NCBI GenBank assembly: GCA_041687695.1
Contig: JAWLBL010000042.1
Span: 1-47,705, forward strand
Length of the DNA: 47,705 nt
Source: Myxococcota bacterium
Lineage (GTDB): Bacteria > Myxococcota_A > UBA9042 > PHBI01 > JAWLBL01
Reading direction: 5' to 3'
Shown in pieces: positions 19,350-38,259 of the stretch. The notes beneath the pieces are model-generated. The model was given only the letters and a program-made list of their open reading frames with translations, did not search any database and was not told where the DNA came from. Numbering within the stretch: position 1 is the first letter of the stretch; each line of letters starts with the position of its first letter. Position numbers and translations under genes: made by a program.

Positions 19350-22300
19350 ATGCAGAGTGTGAGTTGCTTCGGTTACAACCTGGGCGTCGGGTTGGTGGTG
19401 TCGCTGGCGATGCTGGCAGGGGCTTGCGGCGGCGAAGGCGCCGGCGGCCCCGGATCGGAAGCGGACATCCCCAGCACGCAGCCGGACGTGGACGCGACGG
19501 ACGCGACGGGGCAGCCCGACCTGCCGAAGTCTCCCGACGGGGACCCCGGAGACACGACGGCCCAGCCGGACCCGGGCGGGCCCGACGATACCGCCCTCGG
19601 CGAGGACTACGTGCCGTCGCCGGGCGAGTTCCTGCATCCCTGTGTCGAGAACGCCGACTGCTACTCGGGGTTCTGCGTGCCGACCGAGCAGGGGCACGTG
19701 TGCACCAAGACCTGCACCGGGTCGTGCCCGAACGACTGGCGCTGCACGGGCGTGACGACCAGCGGCACGGACATCGCGTTTCTGTGCCTGCCCGACTCGA
19801 GCAAGCTCTGCGCGCCGTGCACGGTCGACTATCAGTGCAACGGCGGCTACTGTCTGGGGCTGCCGGGCGGGGCGAGCTGCACGCGGCCGTGCTCGGACGA
19901 GCAGCCGTGCCCGAACGGGTACGCCTGCGAGGAGCGGACGAGCGACGAGGACGGGTCGAAGACCAGCATGCAGTGTGTGCCGGTGACGGGGCGGTGCGAC
20001 TGCTCGGTCGCCAACCACGGCGAGGAGCGGCCGTGCGTGGTCGAGAACGGATTCGGCAAGTGCTGGGGGGCGATGGTCTGCGACGGGCAGGCGGGCTGGG
20101 GCGCGTGTGACGCGGCCGAGCCGGTCGCCGAGATCTGCGACGGCGTCGACAACGACTGCGACGGCCTGGCGGACGAGGGGGCGGTGGCGCCCGAGGAGGA
20201 CTGCAGCGTCGTCAACGGCTTCGGGGCGTGCGCGGGCGTGTGGACCTGCGGCGGCGCGGACGGCTGGCTGTGCAACGCCAAGGAGCCGGCCGAGGAGCTG
20301 TGCAACTACGTCGACGAGGACTGCGACGGGGTCGTCGACCAGACCTTCCGGGACGCGGAGAGCGGCGAGTACCTGAGCTACGAGCACTGCGGGCTGTGCA
20401 ACAACTCCTGCGAGGGGAAGATCCCGTTCGCGACCGAGACGGCGTGCGCGCTGGTCAATGGCAAGGCGGGGTGCATCGCGGTGACCTGCGCCGTGGGTTA
20501 CGCGATCCCGGCGCAGACCAACCAGGCGTGCGTGCCGGTGGGCGGCGGGACCGACTGCTCGCCGTGCCTGGGCGACGCGACGTGCGAGGACCTGCCGGGC
20601 GGGCAGTGCGAGGCCCTCGAGGGCGGCAACTACTGCACGCGGGCATGCGAGGCCGACGAGGACTGCGTGGGGCCGCTGACGTGCCAGGAGGGGCGCTGCA
20701 AGCCGGTGAGCCTGTCGTGCTCGTGTCTGCCGTCGAACGCGGGGCAGACGCGGCCGTGCCTGCAGGCGAACGAGCACGGGGTGTGCTACGGGCAGGAGAC
20801 CTGTGACCCGACGGCGCCGCCGGGCTGGTCGGCGTGCACGGCGGCGACGCCGGCCGAGGAGGTCTGCGACGGGCTGGACAACGACTGCGATGGGCTGGCG
20901 GACGAGGGGGTGATGCACGACCCGCCGCAGTGCGAGGTGACCAACGCGTTCGGCACGTGCACGGGCGTGTACGTGTGCGGCGGCGCCGCGGGGTGGACCT
21001 GCGCGGTGGCGACGCCGGGCGAGGAGGTCTGCGACTACATGGACAACAACTGCGACGGCGTGGCCGACGAGGGGTTCAAAAACGCGAGCGGGCAGTACGT
21101 CGACGACGCCAACTGCGGGGCGTGCGGCATCTCGTGCGACGGGGCGCTGCCGAACGCGACGGCCGCATGTTCGGCCGACAGCGGGACGCCGCGGTGCGAG
21201 GTGGTCGAGTGCGCGCCGGGCTTCGTGCAGAAGGGGCCGCTGGCCTGCCTGCCGGCGAACCTGGACGCCTGCCTGCCGTGCGCGACCGACGACAACTGCC
21301 CGGGCGGCGCGTGCATCACGTTGACCGACGGCAAGTACTGCATGAACCCCTGCCAGGACGACTCGGCCTGCCTGGACAAGTACAGCTGCCAGGAGATCGA
21401 AAACGGCGGCTACTGCCTGCCCAAGACGCTGTCGTGCCAGTGCGACGGCACCAACACGAACCTGCTGCGCGGCTGCGAGGTGGTGTACGAGCCCACGAGC
21501 GGGCCGAGCTACGGCTGCTTCGGCTTCCAGCAGTGCACGGCGACCGGTTGGGGCGACTGCGCGCTGCCCGAGGAGAAGTGCAACCTGCTCGACGACGACT
21601 GCGACGGCCTCACCGACGAGGACTTCATGGACGAGGCCGGGCAGTTCAAGAGCGACCAGCACTGCGGGGCCTGCGGCAACGACTGCACGCTGCTGCAGTT
21701 CCCGGGCGGCGGCGGCGTGTGCAACACCCTGTTCGACCCGCCGATCTGCTCGATGGCCTGCTCCGACGGCTGCACGGACGTCAACGGCCTGTCGTCCGAC
21801 GGCTGCGAGTGCTGCAACCCGCAGCCGACCGACCTCCCCGATCCGCTGGGCTACGACGCGAACTGCGACGGCATGGACGGTGAGAAGTTCAACGGCGTCT
21901 TCGTCAGCAAGGAGGGCGACGACGCCAACACCGGCCTGTGGGGCGACCCGAAGCTGACCATCCAGGCCGGCATCGACGCGGCGGTGGCGATGGGCAAGCG
22001 CGACGTGTACGTGGCGACCGGCGTGTACATCGAGGCCATCACCCTGGCGCCGGGCGTGGGTGTGTACGGCGGCTACAGCGCCGACTACGACGTCCGCGAC
22101 ACGGTGCCCTACGAGAGCGCCATCCTGGCGCCCGCGCCGACCCTGACGCGTCCCGGGGCGGTGAACGCCATGGGGATCACCGGCGGCGAGGCCGGCACCG
22201 CGGTCTTCGACGGCTTCAGCGTCTACGCCTACCACAACAAGCTGCCGGGCCAGTCGTCGTATGGCGTGTACCTGCTCGACGTCGACGCCACCCTGCGCGT

Positions 22301-23579: not shown

Positions 23580-24578
23580 CTACTCGCCGGACGGGCCGAA
23601 CTTCAGCGGCTCGCCGTGGCTCCAGGCCAGCGGGTTGGCCTGCAGGCCGAAGGCGATCTCCGTCCACTTGCAGGCGATGTCGGCGTCGCCGTCGCCCTCG
23701 GCCTTGTCGACCTCGAGCTGAAAGAAGCGCTCGCGCAGCTCGTCGGACGGGCGCGACAGGAGCTGCATCAGGGACTTGGCGGCCTCGGACGGCTCGAGCA
23801 TGCGCGGCTGCCAGCGGCCGTAGACGCGCTCGTTGTCGACGTAGTCCTCGGTCATCCCAGTGCGGACGAACGGGTAGCCGACGGTCAGCGCCGTCACCTG
23901 GTCGGCGTTGCGGCCCAGGTTGAGGGCGAGGACCTTGGGCAGGATCGACACCGCCCAGTTGGCCACGACGTAGCCGGGGACGCCCGGCCCGGGGTCGACC
24001 GCCTGGCGCGACGAGATGTAGACGACGGTCAGCGGCTCCTTGGCCTCGAGGGCCTCGCTGGCCCACAGGTGGGTCATGGCGAGGAAGCCGTCGACCTTGG
24101 TGTCGACCACGTCGTGCGACTGGCGCAGGTTGTCGACGAAGGCCTGGCGGACGCGGGCGCGGCGCCACGCCATCGGCTCGTCATCGAGGTGCTTGGGCGC
24201 GCGGCCGAGCAGGTAGCCGCTCTCGGACAGGCCCGAGTTGCAGATGAGCAGGTTCGGGGGCTTGCCGCCCATCTTCTCGATGACGTGGCTGCGGATGGAC
24301 CAGACGTCGCGTGGGTTGGTGACGTCCGCCTGGATGGGGAAGGCCCGCCCGCCGCGGGCCTCGATGAGCGCGACCGTCTCGAGGCCGTCGGAGTAGCTGT
24401 TGTGGAAGTGGATGCCCACCGACTCGGCGCCGTTGAGGCCGGCAGCGAGCGCGAAGGCTTGACCGAGGCCGCCGTCCTTGCCGGCGCCCGTGATGAGGAC
24501 GCGCTTGCCGCGCAGGCTCTCGGTCAGGGAGGGGGGCAGTTCGAAGTTGGCGGGATCCGCCTTGATGGCCAATGACAA
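23580..24578 (-). CDS. Atypical SDR-family oxidoreductase
   Basis: TTG start after AGGAGG; VLITGAGKDGGLG, QADVT, LLICNSG, YISS, and PFVRTGM; the catalytic position reads YVVAN instead of YxxxK. Confidence 0.75.
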   Translation of the reverse strand: MSLAIKADPANFELPPSLTESLRGKRVLITGAGKDGGLGQAFALAAGLNGAESVGIHFHNSYSDGLETVALIEARGGRAFPIQADVTNPRDVWSIRSHVIEKMGGKPPNLLICNSGLSESGYLLGRAPKHLDDEPMAWRRARVRQAFVDNLRQSHDVVDTKVDGFLAMTHLWASEALEAKEPLTVVYISSRQAVDPGPGVPGYVVANWAVSILPKVLALNLGRNADQVTALTVGYPFVRTGMTEDYVDNERVYGRWQPRMLEPSEAAKSLMQLLSRPSDELRERFFQLEVDKAEGDGDADIACKWTEIAFGLQANPLAWSHGEPLKFGPSGE

Positions 24579-27653: not shown

Positions 27654-30041
27654 ATGCGACGACTGGGCGGGATCTTCGGGCGGCGGGCGCTTGCGGCGGC
27701 GCTGGTGGTGCAGGCGTGGACCCTCGGAGCGGGGTGCGGCGACGACGGCGCGGGCGGCCCCGGCGAAGGGGACGCGGACGCGCTGGTCGATGCCGAGCCC
27801 GATGGCGAGGCCGACGCCGACGCCGACGGGCCGGACGCCGCGACGGACGACGCGGCCGACGGTGTCGACGGCGAGGTCACCGAGCCCCCCGAGGACCTGG
27901 TGGCCCTGGTCGACGTGTTCGTGGGCACGGGCTCCGAAGGGTTCAACGTCGGGGCGCTCCAGCCGGGCGCGACCACGCCCTTCGGGATGGTCCGCCTGAC
28001 GCCGAACACGGTCGAGGCGTGGGGCAGCAAGCCGTCGGTGATGCACGCGGGCGGCTACAAGTACGAGGACCCGTACGTCGCCGGCTTCGCCCACATCCAG
28101 CTGGTCGGCGTGGGCGTGGCCGACTACGGCAACCTGCTGATGGTCCCGGGCGTCGGCGACCCGGCCGCGCACATCACCGAGGCCGGCTACCGGTTCGACC
28201 TCGACCACGGCCGCGAGTCCGGCGAGCCGGGGTACTACCGCATCGCCCGCAAGGACGACGCGTTCACGGCCGAGCTGACCGCGACCCCGCGCGTCGGCGT
28301 GCACCGCTACACCTACGCGCCCACCGACGAGGCGCTGGTCGTCCTGGACATCACGCGCGGCATCGGCGACGGCACCGCCCTCGACAGCGCCGTGACGGTC
28401 GACCCCGCGACGGGCGAGATCTCGGGCGTCGTGCACTGCTACGGCGAGTTCACCAAGCGCTTCGACGGCTTCGAGCTGTTCTTCGTCATCCGCCCCGACC
28501 GCGCGCCCGCGGGCGTCGGGGTCTGGGACGCCGACGGCTACGTCGAAGGCGAGACCAGCGTCGGCGGGCCCCACGCGGGCATCGTCCTGCGCTACGACGC
28601 GACCGAGGACACCGACGTCGAGGTGCAGGTCGGCCTGTCGTTCGTCGACGTCGACGGCGCGCGCGCCAACCTCGAGGCCGAGGCCGCCGGGCGCTCGTTC
28701 GACGACATCCGGGCCGAGGCGCGCGCCACCTGGGCCGACGCGCTGTCGGTCGTGCGCGTCGAGGGCGGCACCGACACCCGCCGCCGCCTCCTGTACACCG
28801 CCCTGTACCACGCGCTGCTCATGCCCACGCTGCTGACCGACCTCGACGGGCGCTACCGCGGCATCGACAAGCAGGTCTACGAGGCCGAAGGCTTCACCTA
28901 CTACTCGGACTTGTCGCTGTGGGACACCTACCGCACCTTCCACCCGCTCATCACGCTCCTCGCGCCCGATCGCCAGCGCGACTTCGTGGCCTCCCTGGGC
29001 GAGATGGCCAAGGTGTACGGCAAGTTCCCGAAGTGGCCGCTCGCCACGGGCGAGTCCGGCTCCATGCTGGGCGCCAGCGCCGACACCGTGATCGCCGACA
29101 CCGTGCTCACCGGGCTCCCCGGCGGGCTCGGCGTGTTCGACGTCGAGGCCGCCTACCAGACGATGCGCGCCTCCGCGACCCTGCCGACCCCCGAAGGCGC
29201 CAAACCGCGCGAGCACCTCGCGGCCTGCCTCGACCACGGCTACTGCCCGTCCGACCTCATGAGCGGCAGCGTCTCGCGCACCCTCGAGTACGGCGCCAAC
29301 GACTACTGCCTCTCCCGCCTCGCCGAGCACCTGGGCCACGGTGACGACGCCGCCATGTTCCTGCTCCGCTCCAAGAGCTACCAACAGCACTACGAGCCGA
29401 CCAAGGGCTTCCTGGCCCCCCGCCAGTCCGACGGCTCGTTCGTGCCCTTCGACCCCGAGGCCACCAGCGCCCACTACGTCGAGGGCACGCCCTGGCACTA
29501 CCTCTTCATGGTCCCCTTCGACGTCCCGGGGCTGGTCGCGCTGCTCGGCGGCGCCGAGCCCTTCGCCGCCAAGCTCTCCACCTTCCTGGAGGGCGGCCGC
29601 GACAACTTCTCGTGGGTCATGCCCAACGCCTTCTACTACCACGGCAACGAGCCCGACATCGTCGCCCCCTGGCTCTTCGGCTTCGGCGACCGCCCCGACC
29701 TGACCCGCTACTGGACCACCTGGGTCGCCGACAACGCCTACGCCCTGACCCCCGGCGGCCTCACCGGCAACGACGACGGCGGCACCCTGTCGTCCTGGTA
29801 CGTCTTCGCCGCCGCCGGCCTGTACCCGCTGCCGTGCACCGAGACCTACGCCCTGTCGGCGCCCCTGTTTCAGCGCGTGACGTGGCGGCTCGATGGGGGT
29901 GACTTCACCGTGCTCCTGGGCGAAGATCCCGATGCTGCGCCGCACATCGACGGCCAGCCCATCACCGGCCCGACGCTGGCCCGCGACCTGCTGGTCCCTG
30001 GCGCCACGTTGACGCTGCCGCCGCCGCCGGCGGCCCCCTGA
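27654..30041 (+). CDS. GH92 alpha-mannosidase family lipoprotein
   Basis: Lipobox LGAGC and Asp-rich linker; PGATTPFGMV, SLWDTYRT, SRTLEY, YVEG, HGNEP, and GNDDGGTLSSWYVF. Confidence 0.9.
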   Translation: MRRLGGIFGRRALAAALVVQAWTLGAGCGDDGAGGPGEGDADALVDAEPDGEADADADGPDAATDDAADGVDGEVTEPPEDLVALVDVFVGTGSEGFNVGALQPGATTPFGMVRLTPNTVEAWGSKPSVMHAGGYKYEDPYVAGFAHIQLVGVGVADYGNLLMVPGVGDPAAHITEAGYRFDLDHGRESGEPGYYRIARKDDAFTAELTATPRVGVHRYTYAPTDEALVVLDITRGIGDGTALDSAVTVDPATGEISGVVHCYGEFTKRFDGFELFFVIRPDRAPAGVGVWDADGYVEGETSVGGPHAGIVLRYDATEDTDVEVQVGLSFVDVDGARANLEAEAAGRSFDDIRAEARATWADALSVVRVEGGTDTRRRLLYTALYHALLMPTLLTDLDGRYRGIDKQVYEAEGFTYYSDLSLWDTYRTFHPLITLLAPDRQRDFVASLGEMAKVYGKFPKWPLATGESGSMLGASADTVIADTVLTGLPGGLGVFDVEAAYQTMRASATLPTPEGAKPREHLAACLDHGYCPSDLMSGSVSRTLEYGANDYCLSRLAEHLGHGDDAAMFLLRSKSYQQHYEPTKGFLAPRQSDGSFVPFDPEATSAHYVEGTPWHYLFMVPFDVPGLVALLGGAEPFAAKLSTFLEGGRDNFSWVMPNAFYYHGNEPDIVAPWLFGFGDRPDLTRYWTTWVADNAYALTPGGLTGNDDGGTLSSWYVFAAAGLYPLPCTETYALSAPLFQRVTWRLDGGDFTVLLGEDPDAAPHIDGQPITGPTLARDLLVPGATLTLPPPPAAP

Positions 30042-30052
30042 AGGAGCACCCA

Positions 30053-30628
30053 ATGACGCCCAAGACGCACCGCGCCCGAGTGTCCCCTTTCCTGATCGCC
30101 GCCTTCGCCGCCGCCCTGGCCTTCGTGGCCTGTGACAGCGACCCCGAGCCGGTCGCCGTCTCCGAGACGGTCTCGCTCAAGCTCGGCGGCATGAAGGAGG
30201 GCGACGCCAAGAGCGGCACCCACTCGCAGGACAAGAACGTCAACAGCGAGAGCGGCAACCCCTATGGCGAGTTCCTGAAGACCGCCCGCGACCGCCTGAA
30301 CCGCGACCCCTCCGAGATCCGCGTCCGCCGCGTCGACGTCCGCCTGCACGCCGACAGCACGGGCGCGACCGATCTCGGCCAGGTCTTCGCCGACCTAGAG
30401 GTCTTCCTCGCCAACAGCAACACGACCATCCCGCTGGGCACCGTCGACGCCCCGACCGGCACCTCGGTGCAGGTGCCTCTGAACGCCGGCCTCAGCCTCG
30501 ACGCGCTGCAGGCCTCGCTGCTCAGCGGCGACCTCAAGGCCGGCGCCCGGGGCCAGGTGGTCGACACCCCGCCCGCCAAGTACGACGTGCGCCTGACCAT
30601 CGACATCTCCTTCGAGGCGCTGCCCTGA
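30053..30628 (+). CDS. Hypothetical lipoprotein
   Basis: AAGGAG RBS; lipobox FVAC. Confidence 0.75.
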   Translation: MTPKTHRARVSPFLIAAFAAALAFVACDSDPEPVAVSETVSLKLGGMKEGDAKSGTHSQDKNVNSESGNPYGEFLKTARDRLNRDPSEIRVRRVDVRLHADSTGATDLGQVFADLEVFLANSNTTIPLGTVDAPTGTSVQVPLNAGLSLDALQASLLSGDLKAGARGQVVDTPPAKYDVRLTIDISFEALP

Positions 30629-30743
30629 ACCGGCCTCTAAGCGCCTGAACTAGAAGCGCCTGGGTTTCGGGGGCTTGGGAACGGCCGCGGCCCGCGCCGG
30701 GTTGACACCCGTAGACCCCCACCCCCGACACCCGGAGGACCCC

Positions 30744-31253
30744 ATGCGCCTGGCATGGCCGCTCCTCGCCGTCCTGTTCGGCGCCCTCGTCGCCGCCTGC
30801 GACCCCTCCCCCGACGACCCCTTCATCGCCTCCGACGACGACGACGACGATCCCGTCCCGGCGCTCGTCAGCGACTGCGCGGCGCTCGCGGGGACCTGGC
30901 AGGCCCGCGAGCTGCGCCTGACCAGCATCGCCAACCCCGAGGTCATCGCCGCCTTCGACTCGGATCTCACCGACTTCCGCGTCACCTTCACCAACACCAT
31001 CTTCTCGTCCCGCTTCGACCGCCCCGGCATCGAGCCCTTCGCCCAGACCGGCCGCTACGACGTCCTGGGCGACGAGATCGACTTCGAGGACGTGCCGCTC
31101 ATGCCCGGCCTGAGCGCCGGCGACAACCGCTTCGAGTGCCGCATCACCGACCAGGACACCCTGTTCCTGGTCGGCACGGGCGTCTCCTTCGACTTCGCCA
31201 GCTCCGGCGAGCTGCAGCCCGCGCTGTTCGAGGCCGAGCTCGAGCCGCTCTGA
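30744..31253 (+). CDS. Hypothetical lipoprotein (possible lipocalin-like beta-barrel)
   Basis: GGAGG RBS; lipobox VAAC; Asp run; LAGTW motif and alternating beta pattern. Confidence 0.7.
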   Translation: MRLAWPLLAVLFGALVAACDPSPDDPFIASDDDDDDPVPALVSDCAALAGTWQARELRLTSIANPEVIAAFDSDLTDFRVTFTNTIFSSRFDRPGIEPFAQTGRYDVLGDEIDFEDVPLMPGLSAGDNRFECRITDQDTLFLVGTGVSFDFASSGELQPALFEAELEPL

Positions 31254-31311: not shown

Positions 31312-31866
31312 ATGAACGAGCGACCGGACCCGCTGGCCTACACGCCCTACTACTGCGAAGAGAACGCCTGGCACCTGTGCCAGCGGCCCGAGCTGGCGCC
31401 GCTGGACCCGCACGTCGTGTTCGTCTCGAACGCGCGGCGCTGCGTGCCCATGTGGGCGCAGCGGGCCGCGCCCGAGGGCGAGCCGGTCCTGTGGGACTAC
31501 CACGTCGTGGTGGTCACCCGCGCCCCGACCCCGCAGGTCTGGGACCTGGACTCGCGCCTGGGCCTGCCGGTCCCCGCGACGCGCTGGCTGTCCGGCACCT
31601 TCGCGCACCTGGACGAGGTCCGCGCGTCCTTCCACCCCCGCTGCCGCGTGGTCGCGGCGGCCGAGCTGGTCGCCACCTTCTCGACCGACCGCTCGCACAT
31701 GCGCGGCCCGGACGGCGGCTGGTTGCAGCCCCCGCCGCCCTGGCCGGCCCCCTACGCGCCGAGCCGCGGGATGAACCTGTTCGACTTCGTCGACCCCGGC
31801 GCCACCGGGGCCGGGCAGGTGCTGGACCTGCCCGGCCTGTCCGCATGGCTGTCGGCCGCGTCCTGA
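31312..31866 (+). CDS. Protein N-terminal glutamine amidohydrolase (NTAQ1/Nt_Gln_amidase) homolog
   Basis: YCEEN.W.LC, VFVSN, WDYHV, WDLDSRL, FSTDRSHM and PPPPWP occur in the NTAQ1 order; putative triad C15/H64/D78. Confidence 0.85.
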   Translation: MNERPDPLAYTPYYCEENAWHLCQRPELAPLDPHVVFVSNARRCVPMWAQRAAPEGEPVLWDYHVVVVTRAPTPQVWDLDSRLGLPVPATRWLSGTFAHLDEVRASFHPRCRVVAAAELVATFSTDRSHMRGPDGGWLQPPPPWPAPYAPSRGMNLFDFVDPGATGAGQVLDLPGLSAWLSAAS

Positions 31867-31873
31867 CGCTCCG

Positions 31874-34800
31874 TCAGTTCCCAGCCGTGCACGTCCCGCA
31901 GCCGAGCTCGTCGACCAGCATCACGCAGGTCTCGCTCCAGCCGTCGTTGCAGCAGCTCGGCTCGAAGTCGCACACGCACGCGCTGACCTCGGGGTCCACG
32001 CACCCGGGCTCGGGGTGCGGGCTGCAGCAGCTCCCGTCCTCGCAGGGGCCGCAGTCCTGAGGGCACCCGCCGCAGCTCTCCCCCGGCTCGCACTGGCCGT
32101 CACGGCACACCGGCTGGCCCTCGCACGACCCACAGCCCAGCGCCTCCACGCTGCTCGCGCAGACCGCGTCCCAGGCCACCTCGCAGCAGAACGGGTCCTG
32201 CTCGCACATGCAGAAGGTGACGTCGGGCTGCTCGCACCCGGGCGTCGGGTGCGCGACGCAGCAGGCGCCTTCGCAGGGGCCGCAGTCCTTGTCGCAGTTC
32301 AGGCAGCTCTCGCCCGGCCCGCACTCGCCGTCGCCGCACTGGCCGCACTCGCCGCAGTCGTCGGGGCACGTCTCGCAGGACTCGTCCGAGTTGCACATCC
32401 CGTCGCCGCACTCGGCGCACTCGCCGCAGTCGTCCGGGCACAGCTCGCACGACTCGCCGGGCGTGCACATCCCGTCGCCGCACTCGCCGCCGCACGGCCC
32501 GCAGTCGGCCATGCAGGTCTCGCAGCTCTCGATCTGCAGGTCGCACACCTGGTCGCCGCAGGTCGGCTCGGTGTCGCACTGGCCGCAGCCGCGCCGCTCG
32601 ACCAGGGCGACGCAGATGACGTCCCAGGCCACCTCGCAGCAGTACGGGTCGTGGCTGCACACGCACGGCGCGACCTCGCCGTCCTGGCAGCCCGGCTCTT
32701 CGCTGGGCATGCAGCAGCTCGTCGGGCACCCGCCGCAGTCGCGCGGGCACGTCTGGCAGTCCTCGTCGGGGTCGCACGCGCCGTTTCCGCAGATCGGACC
32801 GCACTGGTCCTCGAACACGCAGCCGAACTCCGGATCGCAGGCGTCGGCCGTGCAGAAGTTGCCGTCGTCGCACTCCTTGTCGAACAGGACGCAGCCCCCC
32901 TGGTCGGGGTTGCAGTACCCCTCGAGGCAGGCGTCGCCCTCGCCGCAGTCCAACGGCTGCCCGGCGCAGAAGCCCTGCCCGCAGCTGTCGTTCTCGGTGC
33001 AGGGGTCGCCGTCATCGCACGGCCCGGTCGACGGCGTCGACGTGCAGCCGGCCTGGGCGTCGCAGCTGTCCACCGTGCAGGGGTCGCCGTCGTTGCAGTC
33101 CATCGGCGAGCCGGCCTGGCAGTTGCCGTTGCCGTCGCAGAACTCGAAGCCGTTGCAGACGTCGCCGTCGCTGCAGCTGCCGCTGACCGGGAAGGTGACG
33201 CAGCCGCCGCCGCCGAAGTCGCAGAAGGCGGTCGTGCAGGGGTTGCCGTCGTCGGGGCACTCGACCGGCTCGCCCGACAGGCAGCCGCCGGCGACGGGGT
33301 CGCACATGTCACCCGTCGTGCAGGGGTTGCCGTCCTCGCACGGGCCGGTGGTCGGCGTGAAGACGCACCCGATGTCCGGGTCGCAGGCGTCCGCCGTGCA
33401 CGGGTCGTCGTCGGCGCACACGGGCGGCGAGCCCGCCTGGCACTTGCCGGCGTCGCACACCTCGGCGCCGTTGCAGGGGTCGCCGTCGTCGCAGGTCCCG
33501 ACGGGCGAGGGCAGGTGCACGCAGCCGGTGAACGGGTCGCACAGGTCGTCGGTGCACGGGTTGCCGTCGTCGCAGGCGAGCGTGCCCTGGCCGACGCACC
33601 CGCCGGTCGCCTCGACGCACGTGTCTTCGGTGCTGCAGGCGTTGCCGTCGTCGCACGGCCCCTCGACGAAGAAGTTGTTGCACCCCTCGCCCGCGACACA
33701 GGTCGCCACGACGCAGGGGTTGTCGCTGATGCAGATGGGCGGCTCCGACACGGTCGTGCAGCCGACACCGGGCTCGCAGGCCTCGTTGCCGTTGCAGGGG
33801 TCGCCGTCGTCGCACTGGGGCGGCTCGGTGAACATGCACACGCCCGAGCTGGGGTTGCACACCTCGAGGCCGTTGCAGGGGTCGCCGTCGTCGCACTCGA
33901 CCGGCACGCCGCCGACGCACTCGCCCGTGTCCGGGACGCAGGTCTCGACGCCGTTGCAGGCGTCGCCGTCGTCGCAGACCACCGGCTCGCCGTCGACGCA
34001 CTCGCCCGTGTCCGAGGCGCACGACTCGACGCCGTTGCAGGCGTTGCCGTCGTCGCAGACCACGGGCTCGCCGTTCAGGCAGGCGCCGCTGGCCGGGTCG
34101 CAGGTCTCGAAGCCGTTGCACACGTCGCCGTCGTCGCAGACAACCGGCTCGCCGGCCAGGCACCCGCCCGAGGCGGCGTCGCACGTCTCGAGGCCGTTGC
34201 AGGCGTTGCCGTCGTCGCACTCGAGCGGCGTCCCGGCCACGCACGCCCCCAGCGCCGAGCTGCAGGACTCGAAGCCGTTGCACGGATCGCCGTCGTCGCA
34301 GGCCAGCGGCGTGCCGGCGATGCAGGCGCCGGTCAGGGGGTTGCACCCCTCGACGCCGTTGCAAGCGTCGCCGTCGTCGCAGACGACCGGGTCGCCAGCG
34401 AGGCACGCGCCGGTGGCCGGGTCGCAGGTCTCGACGCCGTTGCAGGCGTCGCCGTCACCGCACAGCACCGGGTCGCCCGGCAGGCACTCGCCGGTCGCCG
34501 GGTCGCAGCCCTCGGCGCCATTGCAGGCGTCGCCGTCGTCGCACACGAGCGCCTCGCCCGCGACGCAGCCTAGGTCGGGATTGCAGGTCTCGACGCCGTT
34601 GCAGGCGTCGGCGTCGTCGCACACCAGCGGCGTGCCCGGGACGCAGCCCGAGGTGGGGCTACAGGTCTCGGCGCCGTTGCAGGCGTCGCCGTCGTCGCAC
34701 GCCAGCGGGGTCCCCTGGACGCACCCGGTCGCCGGGTCGCAGGTCTCGACGCCGTTGCACGCGTCGCCGTCGTTGCAGCTCAGCGCGGTGCCCGCGAGGC

Positions 34801-37800
34801 ACTCGCCGGTGGCGGCGTCGCACGTCTCGACGCCGTTGCAGACGTTGCCGTCGTCGCACACGACCGGCGCGCCCGACAGGCACTCGCCCGTCTGCGCGTC
34901 GCAGGTCTCGAGGCCGTTGCACGCGTCGCCGTCATCGCAGACGACCGGGTCGCCGGCGAGGCAGGCGCCGGTCGCGGCGTCGCAGGTCTCGACGCCGTTG
35001 CAGGCGTCGCCGTCGTCGCAGATGACCGGGACCCCCTCGAGGCAGGCGCCGGTGTCGAAGTTGCACGTCTCGACGCCGTTGCAGGCGTCGCCGTCGTCGC
35101 ACACGACCGGCGTGCCCGGCAGGCACGCGCCGGTGGCGGTGTCGCAGGTCTCGACGCCGTTGCAGGCGTTGCCATCGCCGCAGACGACCGGGTCGCCCGC
35201 GAGGCACGCGCCCGTGCTGGGGTTGCAGGTCTCGAGGCCGTTGCAGGCGTCGCCGTCGTCGCAGACGACCGGGTCGCCCGGCAGGCACGCGCCGGTGGCC
35301 GGGTCGCAGGTCTCGACGCCGTTGCAGGCGTCGCCATCACCGCAGACGACCGGGTCGCCCGCGAGGCACGCGCCCGTGCTGGGGTTGCAGGTCTCGAGGC
35401 CGTTGCACGCGTCGCCGTCGTCACAGGTCACCGGCGTCCCGGAGATGCAGGCCCCCGTCGTGGGGTTGCAGGTCTCGAGGCCGTTGCAGGCGTCGCCGTC
35501 GTCGCACACGATCGGGTCACCGTCGACGCAGGCGCCGGTCGCGGGGTCGCAGGTCTCGCCGCCGTTGCAGGCGTCGCCGTCGCCGCAGACCACCGGCGTG
35601 CCGGCCAGGCACGCGCCGGTGGCCACGTCGCAGGTCTCGACGCCGTTGCAAGCGTTGCCGTCATCACAGGTCACCGGCGAGCCGGCGACGCAGGCTCCCG
35701 TCGTAGGGTTGCAGGACTCGACGCCGTTGCAGGCGTCGCCGTCGTCGCAGGTCACCGGCGTGCCGGCCACGCACTCGCCGCTGGCCGAGTCACAGCTCTC
35801 GACACCGTTACAAGCGTCGCCGTCGTCGCAGGTCACCGGCGTGCCGGCCACGCACGCGCCGGTGGCCGAGTCACAGCTCTCGACACCGTTACAAGCGTCG
35901 CCGTCGTCGCAGGTCACCGGCGTGCCGGCCACGCACTCGCCGCTGGCCGAGTCGCAGGTCTCGACGCCGTTGCAGGCGTCGCCGTCGTCGCAGCTGACCG
36001 CCGTCCCCGCGACACACTCACCGGTGGCCGAGTCACAGGTCTCCACACCGTTGCAGGCGTCACCGTCGTCGCAGGTCACCGCCGTGCCGGCCACGCACTC
36101 ACCAGTGGCCGAGTCACAGGTCTCGACACCGTTACAAGCGTCACCGTCGTCGCAGGTCACCGCCGTCCCCGCGACACACTCGCCGCTGGCCGAGTCACAG
36201 GTCTCGGCTCCGTTGCAAGCGTCCCCGTCATCACAAGTGACCGCCGTCCCAGCCACGCACTCGCCGGAGGCCGAATCACAGGTCTCGACTCCGTTGCAGG
36301 CGTCGCCATCGTCGCAGGTCACCGCCGTCCCAGCCACGCACTCGCCGGAGGCCGAATCACAGGTCTCGACTCCGTTGCAGGCGTCGCCGTCGTCGCAGGA
36401 CACCGCGGTCCCGGCGACACACTCGCCAGTCGCCGAGTCGCAGGTCTCGCCGCCGTTGCAGGCGTCGCCGTCGTCGCAGGACACCGCGGTCCCGGCAACA
36501 CACTCGCCAGTCGCCGAGTCACAGGTCTCGACCCCGTTGCAGGCGTCGCCGTCATCGCAGCTGACCGCCGTGCCGGCGACACACTCACCAGTGGCCGAGT
36601 CACAGGTCTCGACCCCATTGCAGGCGTCGCCGTCGTCACAGGACACCGCGGTCCCGGCGACACACTCGCCAGTCGCCGAGTCACAGGTCTCGACCCCATT
36701 GCAGGCGTCGCCGTCGTCGCAGGACACCGCCGTCCCGGCGACACACTCGCCAGTCGCCGAGTCACAGGTCTCGACTCCGTTGCAGGCGTCGCCATCGTCG
36801 CAGGTCACCGCCGTCCCAGCCACGCACTCGCCCGTGGCCGAGTCACAGGTCTCGACGCCGTTGCAAGCGTCCCCGTCATCACAAGTGACCGCCGTCCCCG
36901 CGACACACTCGCCGCTGGCCGAGTCGCAGGTCTCGACGCCGTTGCAGGCGTCCCCGTCGTCGCAGGTCACCGCCGTCCCAGCCACGCACTCGCCCGTGGC
37001 CGTGTCGCAGGTCTCGACGCCGTTGCAGGCGTCGCCGTCGTCGCAGCTGACCGCCGTGCCGGCGACGCACTCGCCGGAGGCCGAATCACAGGTCTCGACT
37101 CCGTTGCAGGCGTCGCCATCGTCGCAGGTCACCGCCGTCCCAGCCACGCACTCGCCCGTGGCCGCGTCGCAGGTCTCGACGCCGTTGCAGGCGTCGCCGT
37201 CGTCGCAGCTGACCGCCGTGCCGGCGACACACTCACCGGTGGCCGCGTCACAGGTCTCGACCCCGTTGCAGGCGTCACCGTCGTCGCAGCTGACCTCCGT
37301 CCCCGCGACACACTCACCAGTGGCCGAGTCGCAGGTCTCGACGCCGTTACAAGCGTCCCCGTCGTCGCAGGTCACCGCCGTGCCGGCCACGCACTCGCCG
37401 GAGGCCGAGTCACAGGTCTCGACGCCATTGCAGGCGTCGCCGTCGTCGCAGCTGACCGCCGTGCCGGCCACGCACTCGCCGCTGGCCGAATCGCACGTCT
37501 CGACGCCGTTGCAGGCGTCGCCGTCGTCGCACTTCGGCGGCTCGCCCGGCTTGCACTGCCCGCTCGGCGCGTCGCACGTCTCGACCCCGTTGCAGGCGTC
37601 CCCGTCGTCGCACACCGTCAGGTCCGGCTCGTCGTTCTTCGGGTCCTCCTCGTCGGGCAGGCAGTCCCCATCGGCGTCCTCGATGCTGGACTCCAGCGCG
37701 TCGATGATCCCGTCGCCGTCCCGGTCCGGTGGCGACTTCGACGTCCCGACCTCCTCGAAGTCCGACTTGCCGTCGCCGTCCGTGTCGGCGTCGGTCGCCC

Positions 37801-38032
37801 GCAGCCCGAGCCGCGACTCATCCAGGTTCGACAGGCCGTCCCCGTCCTCGTCCCCGTCCGGCTCCATGCAGACGGACTCGTAGCAGAGGTTGCTCGCGCA
37901 GGCCGAGTCCTCGCCGCACGTGTCCCCGCGCTTGCGCCGCTCATCGTCGTCACACCCGACCAGCCCCACCAGCGCCGCCAGGATCACCCCCCGGACCAGC
38001 GCCGTCCTCGACATCGATGTCCGCTCGAGCAT
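31874..38032 (-). CDS. Giant Cys-rich repeat lipoprotein (~2050 aa; start 38032 or 38014)
   Basis: Lipobox LVGC; DxDGDG Ca-binding-type repeats; roughly 47 copies of 27-aa CDDGDACNGVETCD..TG.C..G..V; C-terminal Cys modules. Confidence 0.85.
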   Translation of the reverse strand: MLERTSMSRTALVRGVILAALVGLVGCDDDERRKRGDTCGEDSACASNLCYESVCMEPDGDEDGDGLSNLDESRLGLRATDADTDGDGKSDFEEVGTSKSPPDRDGDGIIDALESSIEDADGDCLPDEEDPKNDEPDLTVCDDGDACNGVETCDAPSGQCKPGEPPKCDDGDACNGVETCDSASGECVAGTAVSCDDGDACNGVETCDSASGECVAGTAVTCDDGDACNGVETCDSATGECVAGTEVSCDDGDACNGVETCDAATGECVAGTAVSCDDGDACNGVETCDAATGECVAGTAVTCDDGDACNGVETCDSASGECVAGTAVSCDDGDACNGVETCDTATGECVAGTAVTCDDGDACNGVETCDSASGECVAGTAVTCDDGDACNGVETCDSATGECVAGTAVTCDDGDACNGVETCDSATGECVAGTAVSCDDGDACNGVETCDSATGECVAGTAVSCDDGDACNGVETCDSATGECVAGTAVSCDDGDACNGVETCDSATGECVAGTAVSCDDGDACNGGETCDSATGECVAGTAVSCDDGDACNGVETCDSASGECVAGTAVTCDDGDACNGVETCDSASGECVAGTAVTCDDGDACNGAETCDSASGECVAGTAVTCDDGDACNGVETCDSATGECVAGTAVTCDDGDACNGVETCDSATGECVAGTAVSCDDGDACNGVETCDSASGECVAGTPVTCDDGDACNGVESCDSATGACVAGTPVTCDDGDACNGVESCDSASGECVAGTPVTCDDGDACNGVESCNPTTGACVAGSPVTCDDGNACNGVETCDVATGACLAGTPVVCGDGDACNGGETCDPATGACVDGDPIVCDDGDACNGLETCNPTTGACISGTPVTCDDGDACNGLETCNPSTGACLAGDPVVCGDGDACNGVETCDPATGACLPGDPVVCDDGDACNGLETCNPSTGACLAGDPVVCGDGNACNGVETCDTATGACLPGTPVVCDDGDACNGVETCNFDTGACLEGVPVICDDGDACNGVETCDAATGACLAGDPVVCDDGDACNGLETCDAQTGECLSGAPVVCDDGNVCNGVETCDAATGECLAGTALSCNDGDACNGVETCDPATGCVQGTPLACDDGDACNGAETCSPTSGCVPGTPLVCDDADACNGVETCNPDLGCVAGEALVCDDGDACNGAEGCDPATGECLPGDPVLCGDGDACNGVETCDPATGACLAGDPVVCDDGDACNGVEGCNPLTGACIAGTPLACDDGDPCNGFESCSSALGACVAGTPLECDDGNACNGLETCDAASGGCLAGEPVVCDDGDVCNGFETCDPASGACLNGEPVVCDDGNACNGVESCASDTGECVDGEPVVCDDGDACNGVETCVPDTGECVGGVPVECDDGDPCNGLEVCNPSSGVCMFTEPPQCDDGDPCNGNEACEPGVGCTTVSEPPICISDNPCVVATCVAGEGCNNFFVEGPCDDGNACSTEDTCVEATGGCVGQGTLACDDGNPCTDDLCDPFTGCVHLPSPVGTCDDGDPCNGAEVCDAGKCQAGSPPVCADDDPCTADACDPDIGCVFTPTTGPCEDGNPCTTGDMCDPVAGGCLSGEPVECPDDGNPCTTAFCDFGGGGCVTFPVSGSCSDGDVCNGFEFCDGNGNCQAGSPMDCNDGDPCTVDSCDAQAGCTSTPSTGPCDDGDPCTENDSCGQGFCAGQPLDCGEGDACLEGYCNPDQGGCVLFDKECDDGNFCTADACDPEFGCVFEDQCGPICGNGACDPDEDCQTCPRDCGGCPTSCCMPSEEPGCQDGEVAPCVCSHDPYCCEVAWDVICVALVERRGCGQCDTEPTCGDQVCDLQIESCETCMADCGPCGGECGDGMCTPGESCELCPDDCGECAECGDGMCNSDESCETCPDDCGECGQCGDGECGPGESCLNCDKDCGPCEGACCVAHPTPGCEQPDVTFCMCEQDPFCCEVAWDAVCASSVEALGCGSCEGQPVCRDGQCEPGESCGGCPQDCGPCEDGSCCSPHPEPGCVDPEVSACVCDFEPSCCNDGWSETCVMLVDELGCGTCTAGN
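33750..37613 (-). repeat. Coding tandem repeat array, mostly 81-bp units
   Basis: GGTCTCGACGCCGTTGCAGGCGTCGCCGTCGTCGCA recurs on the + strand every 78-81 bp. Confidence 0.9.
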
Positions 38033-38259
38033 GCCACTTCCCCACCCTGTTCGCGGTGCGCCGACCCTAGCCTCACCCGCGGCCCGACGCAACGCGCGCT
38101 CCCCCGGGTGGCGCCCCGCCAGCGTCCCCGACACGCGCCCCGCGCCCCCTCCCCGCCGCCTCCCGATCGCCGCCCACGGCCGTTCACTCACCCGGGGTTG
38201 GCGCCCGCCGTCGCGTGGCGCATGCTGACGCCCCGCACCCCATCCCCGAGAGGTCCGCG

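Follow-up and report, generated by a model that had tools for sequence, protein, structure and literature searches.

A putative NTAQ1-family N-terminal glutamine amidohydrolase encoded in a Myxococcota genome without detectable Bpt

The NTAQ1 enzymes of human and mouse (PDB 3C9Q, 4W79, 6KGJ and 8JJ*) are single-domain, cytosolic N-terminal glutamine (Nt-Gln) amidohydrolases, and the human protein carries a catalytic triad formed by Cys28, His81 and Asp97 (as given in PMC4214742). In the structural account of PMC11168063, the α-amino group of the substrate is held via waters on Glu29, His148 and Asp79, and Tyr80 and Met149 add contacts to the substrate N-terminus/backbone; the same account proposes that Glu158 favours a basic second residue. 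In Bacteria, the described system is the Leu/N-degron pathway, based on ClpS-ClpAP, on the Leu/Phe transferase Aat and, in some species, on Bpt, which leucylates Nt-Asp/Glu in Vibrio vulnificus (bioRxiv 10.1101/2021.07.26.453911). As far as that account goes, Bpt is the only described bacterial acceptor enzyme for Nt-Glu, and the pathway has secondary but no tertiary residues. A search of literature titles and abstracts returned no description of a bacterial NTAQ1 or of a bacterial Nt-amidase step, in line with an earlier note on this DNA, which had stated that canonical bacterial N-degron pathways have no described Nt-Gln amidase. To our knowledge, the destabilising residues described for the bacterial N-degron pathway are primary and secondary ones, with no tertiary (amidase-dependent) class. 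A further group to be considered comprises the protein-glutaminases of Chryseobacterium and Flavobacterium and the papain-fold Gln deamidases, which share with NTAQ1 a papain/transglutaminase-like fold, a Cys-His-Asp triad and the chemistry of Gln deamidation (PMC4214742); the protein-glutaminases differ in being secreted pro-enzymes that act on internal Gln.

The gene described here lies in the window, by which we mean the whole stretch of 47,705 nt that was analysed, and its main features are the following:

31312..31866, plus strand: putative NTAQ1-family Nt-Gln amidohydrolase gene, a complete ORF of 184 aa, predicted cytosolic
31351..31365, plus strand: YCEEN, residues 14-18, aligned to human Cys28/Glu29
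31354-31356, plus strand: codon of Cys15, putative catalytic nucleophile, equivalent to human Cys28
31492..31506, plus strand: WDYHV, residues 61-65, with Asp62/Tyr63 equivalent to human Asp79/Tyr80
31501-31503, plus strand: codon of His64, putative catalytic base, equivalent to human His81
31543..31551, plus strand: DLD, residues 78-80
31543-31545, plus strand: codon of Asp78, third residue of the putative triad, equivalent to human Asp97
31687..31701, plus strand: DRSHM, residues 126-130, with His129/Met130 equivalent to human His148/Met149
31729..31746, plus strand: PPPPWP, a family-conserved proline-rich motif, residues 140-145

The start of the ORF was taken at the first start codon past an in-frame stop, and the reading frame has the third-codon-position GC excess usual for coding DNA here. 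In the Pfam profile search suggested by the earlier note, the protein matched Nt_Gln_amidase (PF09764) with 151.5 bits and an E-value of 2.5e-44, along most of the profile (positions 1 to 177 of 184), the curated gathering cut-off of this family being 27 bits. Furthermore, a sequence search recovered the human NTAQ1 chains 4w79 and 3c9q with an E-value of 1.9e-33 over query residues 6-170. A match to PF18626, noted in the comparison with the protein-glutaminases, stayed under its cut-off (E 0.065), and the NCBIfam search with the 184-aa protein returned no model. Public annotation already recognises the family, several bacterial relatives carrying the NCBI name 'protein N-terminal glutamine amidohydrolase', and the protein of the window is one more member of it. 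In fact, compared with the public bacterial PF09764 proteins (Polyangium, Plesiocystis pacifica SIR-1, Lamprocystis purpurea DSM 4197 and Myxococcota MAGs), to which it is 40-56% identical, it has equal length and motifs and shows no difference of substance; what distinguishes it is its genome, which is without Bpt, whereas many of the genomes carrying the public proteins have it.

The five hallmark blocks that had been picked out from the letters alone (YCEEN, WDYHV, DLD, DRSHM and PPPxP) were all located in the 184-aa translation, and the Cys-His-Asp triad is complete, as had been claimed, Cys15, His64 and Asp78 aligning to Cys28, His81 and Asp97 of the human enzyme. The residues that contact the N-terminus of the substrate are present as well: in the alignment, human Glu29, His148, Asp79, Tyr80 and Met149 correspond to Glu16, His129, Asp62, Tyr63 and Met130, respectively. 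These eight residues are invariant in the 22 bacterial homologs of alignment A1 and are kept in 110/110 bacterial rows of a larger alignment, whose 121 rows (117 of them distinct) include four genomes that came in by two search routes. In the same bacterial rows, Asp80 of the DLD block is kept throughout (110/110) and Asp126 of DRSHM in 106/110, and of the proline-rich motif, in which Pro141 and Pro142 are both invariant in alignment A1, Pro142 is kept in 110/110 and Pro141 in 108/110. By contrast with the human enzyme, the position of Glu158 is occupied by Gln139, and it is variable across bacteria. The key residues are equally kept whether the rows come from Bpt-bearing genomes (45 rows) or from genomes that lack canonical Bpt (35 rows), which indicates that the enzyme is under the same constraint where Bpt is missing. 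Finally, Cys15 lies too near the N-terminus, with no hydrophobic stretch ahead of it by inspection, so that a signal peptide would not fit, and the absence of such a peptide reported in the earlier note is borne out. Judged on its sequence, the protein truly belongs to the NTAQ1 family, and its active site is intact.

The predicted structure leads to the same family. The AlphaFold2 model, built from a 22-sequence alignment, has a mean pLDDT of 95.0 and a pTM of 0.91, and in Foldseek it superposes on 15 human NTAQ1 entries with TM-scores of 0.86-0.90 and an rmsd of 1.8-2.1 Å, so that the α-β-α sandwich of the human enzyme is matched by a predicted, not a solved, structure. Identity to human/mouse NTAQ1 in the structural alignment is 32-34%, and length and single-domain architecture are similar. 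The next fold match is a protein-glutaminase at TM 0.38 (E 2.6e-3), the protein-glutaminases as a group reaching TM 0.35-0.39 with 17-18% identity. A match to NTAQ1 was thus found both by profile HMM and by structure, and the identification of a bacterial homolog of the eukaryotic enzyme, made in the earlier note from the letters alone, stands. The hosts differ: the bacterial one is without ubiquitin-type N-recognins (zf-UBR gave no match, but neither did its controls), and its genome has no ATE1/Bpt.

On these grounds, the protein is very likely an Nt-Gln amidase. By analogy with the human enzyme, Cys15, assisted by His64 and Asp78, would attack the amide in the side chain of an N-terminal Gln, ammonia would be released and hydrolysis of the thioester would leave an N-terminal Glu, with Glu16, Asp62, Tyr63, His129 and Met130 presumably holding the free α-amino group of the substrate. 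The presence of these α-amino-binding residues implies that the enzyme should act on N-terminal and not on internal Gln. We know of no exposure of N-terminal Gln by methionine aminopeptidase, and the substrates would therefore be fragments produced by endoproteolytic cleavage. The reading that we consider probable is that of a cytosolic, competent NTAQ1-type Nt-Gln amidohydrolase that is uncoupled from Bpt in this genome; family, fold and the conserved active-site and N-terminus-binding residues are read from the sequence and the predicted model, and from them we infer the amidase activity itself. The fate of the Nt-Glu product may be sought, speculatively, in two directions: an Nt-Glu reader or transferase that has so far gone unrecognised, or a non-degradative editing of N-termini, for example one that would block the cyclisation of Nt-Gln to pyroglutamate.

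The surroundings of the gene give little indication of a partner. The neighbouring ORFs are the following:

27654-30041, plus strand: GH92 glycoside hydrolase (PF07971 and PF17678)
30053-30628, plus strand: ORF of about 190 aa, no Pfam/NCBIfam match
30675-31253, plus strand: ORF of about 190 aa, no Pfam/NCBIfam match, ending 58 nt before the NTAQ1 gene
31874-38191, minus strand: Cys-rich repeat ORF of 2105 aa, converging on the NTAQ1 gene, with the two stop codons 7 nt apart

By eye, the N-termini of the GH92 ORF and of both ORFs of about 190 aa are lipoprotein-like and end in Cys; three lipoprotein-like ORFs thus lie directly upstream, on the same strand, of a gene with a predicted cytosolic product. 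The 2105-aa ORF consists mostly of Cys-rich tandem repeats of about 36 aa, built of CDDGDACNGVETCD... units, and its search against NCBIfam gave only ZmpC, with 23 bits against a cut-off of 3000. The scan for promoters and terminators, which is uninformative in a high-GC genome, found no promoter-like site and a single terminator-like one, which lies within the ORF on the minus strand.

The comparison was extended to other NTAQ1 loci. Clustering of the ORFs of at least 100 aa within 6 kb of the gene at 81 loci revealed no conserved operon partner, the largest neighbour cluster being found at 8 of the 81 loci, all of Chromatiaceae type, and the Pfam families of the 62 same-strand close neighbours are heterogeneous. 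An upstream α/β-hydrolase, found among 8 of these 62 neighbours, was considered as a partner and discarded, as two syntenies with no relation to each other underlie it: in Acidobacteriota the gene is MetX, in Nannocystaceae a generic hydrolase, and the two are 22-25% identical. An FHA-domain gene precedes NTAQ1 at two loci of one clade only (L086 and L105), and the window has none in that place. With no recurring neighbour and no pathway family nearby, the NTAQ1 gene stands alone. The 57 longer forms of the protein carry heterogeneous domains (among them UDPGP, GNAT, PrmA-like and NUDIX), none of which is dominant, and some of these fusions may be gene-calling artefacts; those with GNAT/RimI-like (two) and PrmA-like (one) domains fit loosely with N-terminal modification and are too few to count.

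Two single loci may be mentioned in this regard. Upstream of the NTAQ1 gene of Nannocystaceae bacterium ST9 (locus L072, 4529-5977), an RNA 2'-phosphotransferase (Tpt1/KptA) appears fused to an α/β-hydrolase, although in DNA of such high GC the ORF may have been called too long. In one genome of the window's phylum (G083, contig 53, L008), aat (23634-24146) and the NTAQ1 gene (19915-20430) share a strand and are about 3.2 kb apart; none of the remaining 44 carriers in the phylum sample shows this arrangement and the closeness is probably due to chance.

One alternative, which we regard as unlikely, is that the enzyme acts on a target other than protein Nt-Gln, such as an internal Gln of a specific protein, small peptides or amides. 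The distant fold relatives of the protein are protein-glutaminases and SseI (Foldseek; PMC4214742), and related protein-glutaminases and papain-fold deamidase effectors act on internal Gln; moreover, the pathway context is missing in this genome and the fusions are sporadic and varied, the 57 longer forms included. These points have to be set against the five residues that in human NTAQ1 contact the α-amino group and the N-terminal backbone, invariant in all of the 110 bacterial rows, and against TM-scores of 0.86-0.90 to NTAQ1 as compared with at most 0.38 to glutaminases. Another target had been the fallback of the earlier note, and it is weakened by the invariance of the residues that would hold the substrate α-amino group.

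The main proposal of the earlier note was that the amidase feeds Nt-Glu to a Bpt/ATE-like transferase, and in the genome of the window, a draft of 7.97 Mb in 63 contigs that is 99.27% complete, one part of the expected set was found and the other was not. Profile searches identified a single copy of PF09764, ClpS (115 bits) and Aat; 33 nt downstream of clpS lies an ORF whose best match is ClpA, with 580 bits over 484 residues, a value that falls short of the cut-off for the full-length protein, as the locus ends inside the ORF. The genome therefore resembles the described bacterial Leu/N-degron pathway in having clpS-clpA and aat, and the Nt-Glu expected from the amidase is a residue on which Bpt acts, but Bpt is absent here and NTAQ1 is linked to no pathway gene. 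In particular, neither ATE_C (PF04377) nor ATE_N (PF04376), the Bpt/ATE families, gave a match at E<=0.001, and the top ATE_C match at E<=10 has 11.9 bits and falls within a GNAT domain of PF13480. E. coli, run as a control in the ATE_C search, was likewise without a match. The GNAT protein was weighed as a hidden Bpt and rejected, since it is not similar to the divergent ATE_C-like ORF (described below) of another carrier, G083. NTAN1 and zf-UBR gave no match in the genome of the window, and none in the control genomes either, so that these two negatives carry no weight.

With Bpt undetectable, the Nt-Glu product is barred from the described Leu/N-degron route here, and the proposed handover to Bpt is unavailable, save for a bpt gene in an assembly gap or for a non-homologous enzyme. 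The sequence of events in which NTAQ1 yields Nt-Glu, a Bpt/ATE-like enzyme adds Leu and ClpS-ClpAP degrades the product, that is, a tertiary branch operating in this bacterium, consequently appears quite improbable. It can draw on ClpS-ClpA and Aat in the genome of the window, on ClpS and Aat in 45/45 carriers of the phylum, on the leucylation of Nt-Asp/Glu by Bpt in Vibrio vulnificus (bioRxiv 10.1101/2021.07.26.453911) and on the co-occurrence with ATE_C outside the phylum (40/50 carriers; 7/7 against 26/54 and 4/4 against 10/57 in two orders). It is opposed, besides the missing ATE_C/ATE_N in a genome of such completeness, by the 62 same-strand close neighbours, none of which belongs to an ATE_C, ATE_N, ClpS or Aat family, and by the survey of the phylum, as follows.

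Among 401 genomes of the window's phylum, each at least 90% complete, ATE_C was found in 16/45 NTAQ1 carriers versus 116/356 non-carriers (odds ratio 1.14, p 0.74), and 29 of the 45 carriers are without it. Of the 45 carriers, 26 belong to three families (f23, f35 and f43) and are without a canonical ATE_C match, three of these genomes giving only weak matches of about 65 bits. ClpS and Aat are present in all 45 carriers (a count on carriers only), and a role in an N-degron route through an unrecognised step may accordingly hold.

The picture across phyla is different. ATE_C was found in 40 of 50 NTAQ1 carriers, which were picked from 80 loci for their longer contigs, a count on carriers only. 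In an Obscuribacter-centred order (61 genomes) ATE_C is present in 7/7 carriers versus 26/54 non-carriers (nominal p 0.013), and in an Acidobacteriota order (61 genomes) in 4/4 versus 10/57 (nominal p 0.002); these p-values ignore relatedness, and larger carrier genomes are a possible confound. The Chromatiaceae (61 genomes) were tried as a further contrast and proved uninformative, with ATE_C in 6/6 carriers and 53/55 non-carriers: Bpt is nearly universal in this family (59/61), so that part of the 40/50 is clade background. The co-occurrence that the earlier note had put forward as a check thus gives a mixed picture, being seen in the Obscuribacter-centred and Acidobacteriota orders and showing no enrichment in the window's own phylum. 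Outside that phylum, these counts suggest that the usual role of NTAQ1 is coupled to Bpt, and a carrier that lacks Bpt is then less easily explained; a link to Bpt, plausible for certain lineages, is not obligatory, and in the genome of the window it is absent.

For the Bpt-bearing carriers, a tertiary N-degron branch is a reasonable hypothesis. A broader view, to which we give tentative and rather less than even credence, is that NTAQ1 and Bpt together form, in several phyla, a tertiary branch within the Leu/N-degron pathway (from Nt-Gln via Nt-Glu and Leu-Glu to ClpS-ClpAP), which would be the counterpart, possibly the antecedent, of the eukaryotic NTAQ1-ATE1 step, and that the Bpt-less Myxococcota keep the amidase because an enzyme or recognin not yet recognised reads Nt-Glu. 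A conserved bacterial NTAQ1 family makes the question of tertiary residues in bacteria directly testable. In some clades, NTAQ1 is found only in genomes with Bpt; in the genome of the window, as in three or more families of Myxococcota, a conserved amidase is found where the sole known acceptor of its product is missing, which points either to a missing component of the pathway or to a non-degradative role of N-terminal deamidation.

Returning to the enzyme, a probable amidohydrolase uncoupled from Bpt, its relatives are widespread. In a large protein collection, 1982 clusters at E<=0.001 were retained among 2319 candidates, the best 120 of which are 42-56% identical to the protein of the window and include many Myxococcota. 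A pattern search of species-representative genomes gave 378 stretches, of which 308 code for a relative, and the best 80 belong to Myxococcota (among them Polyangium fumosum DSM 14668 and Plesiocystis pacifica SIR-1), Obscuribacter/Melainabacteria, Acidobacteriota, Chromatiaceae (among them Lamprocystis purpurea DSM 4197), Planctomycetota, Spirochaetales and other groups. The distribution in the window's phylum is patchy (45/401 genomes), with one further carrier in the window's order, and a protein atlas gives both bacterial and eukaryotic PF09764 clusters as nearest neighbours.

The phylogeny against eukaryotic NTAQ1 proposed in the earlier note was run as a quick maximum-likelihood tree (IQ-TREE, LG+C20+F+G4; 121 rows, 184 columns), with no outgroup. 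Its eukaryotes are those found in the search for longer forms, namely fungi, green algae, nematodes, which are the sole animals, and protists, and six eukaryotic sequences were dropped for partial domain coverage. The 11 eukaryotic and 110 bacterial rows are parted by a single branch with an SH-aLRT of 99, which speaks against a recent transfer from a sampled eukaryotic lineage, and the protein of the window pairs with that of the other carrier of its order (G276) with a support of 82. Bacterial phyla cluster in part (21 label changes versus a shuffled mean of 37.4) on a weakly supported backbone. A relic, a contaminant or a recently acquired eukaryotic gene without function in the bacterium, for which the patchiness in the phylum (45/401) might be invoked, is very improbable indeed in view of the intact frame with every key residue kept, the typical coding GC excess, the 1982 related clusters, whose named members are mostly bacterial, the relatives in 308/378 candidate stretches, the neighbour from the same order (support 82) and the single branch between bacteria and eukaryotes (support 99).

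Some further observations concern other carriers. A divergent ATE_C-like ORF of about 350 aa (L114 865-1911, on contig 216 of G083) matches PF04377 with 62.6 bits and PF13480 weakly; it is found also in G148 and G303, these few NTAQ1 carriers being from families f23 and f43, which are otherwise poor in Bpt, and second copies like it occur in other families of the phylum, with no counterpart in the genome of the window. Two Bpt-less NTAQ1 carriers, G330 and G208, have two full-length Aat copies (PF03588) each, and the second of them might conceivably differ in its specificity for the acceptor. In the pair of MAGs L066/L070, one of which is labelled Bathyarchaeota and the other Gammaproteobacteria, the NTAQ1 proteins are nearly identical (branch lengths 0 and 0.009) and the upstream neighbours both have MliC/LprI domains; the Bathyarchaeota-labelled sequence looks like a mis-binned bacterial contig, not an archaeal NTAQ1. 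Finally, the NTAQ1 of a MAG labelled Bdellovibrio bacteriovorus (L056) falls within the Chromatiaceae clade with a support of 99, and NamZ, which lies upstream of it, is found too in a Chromatiaceae locus (L111), a placement due either to mis-binning or to recent transfer.
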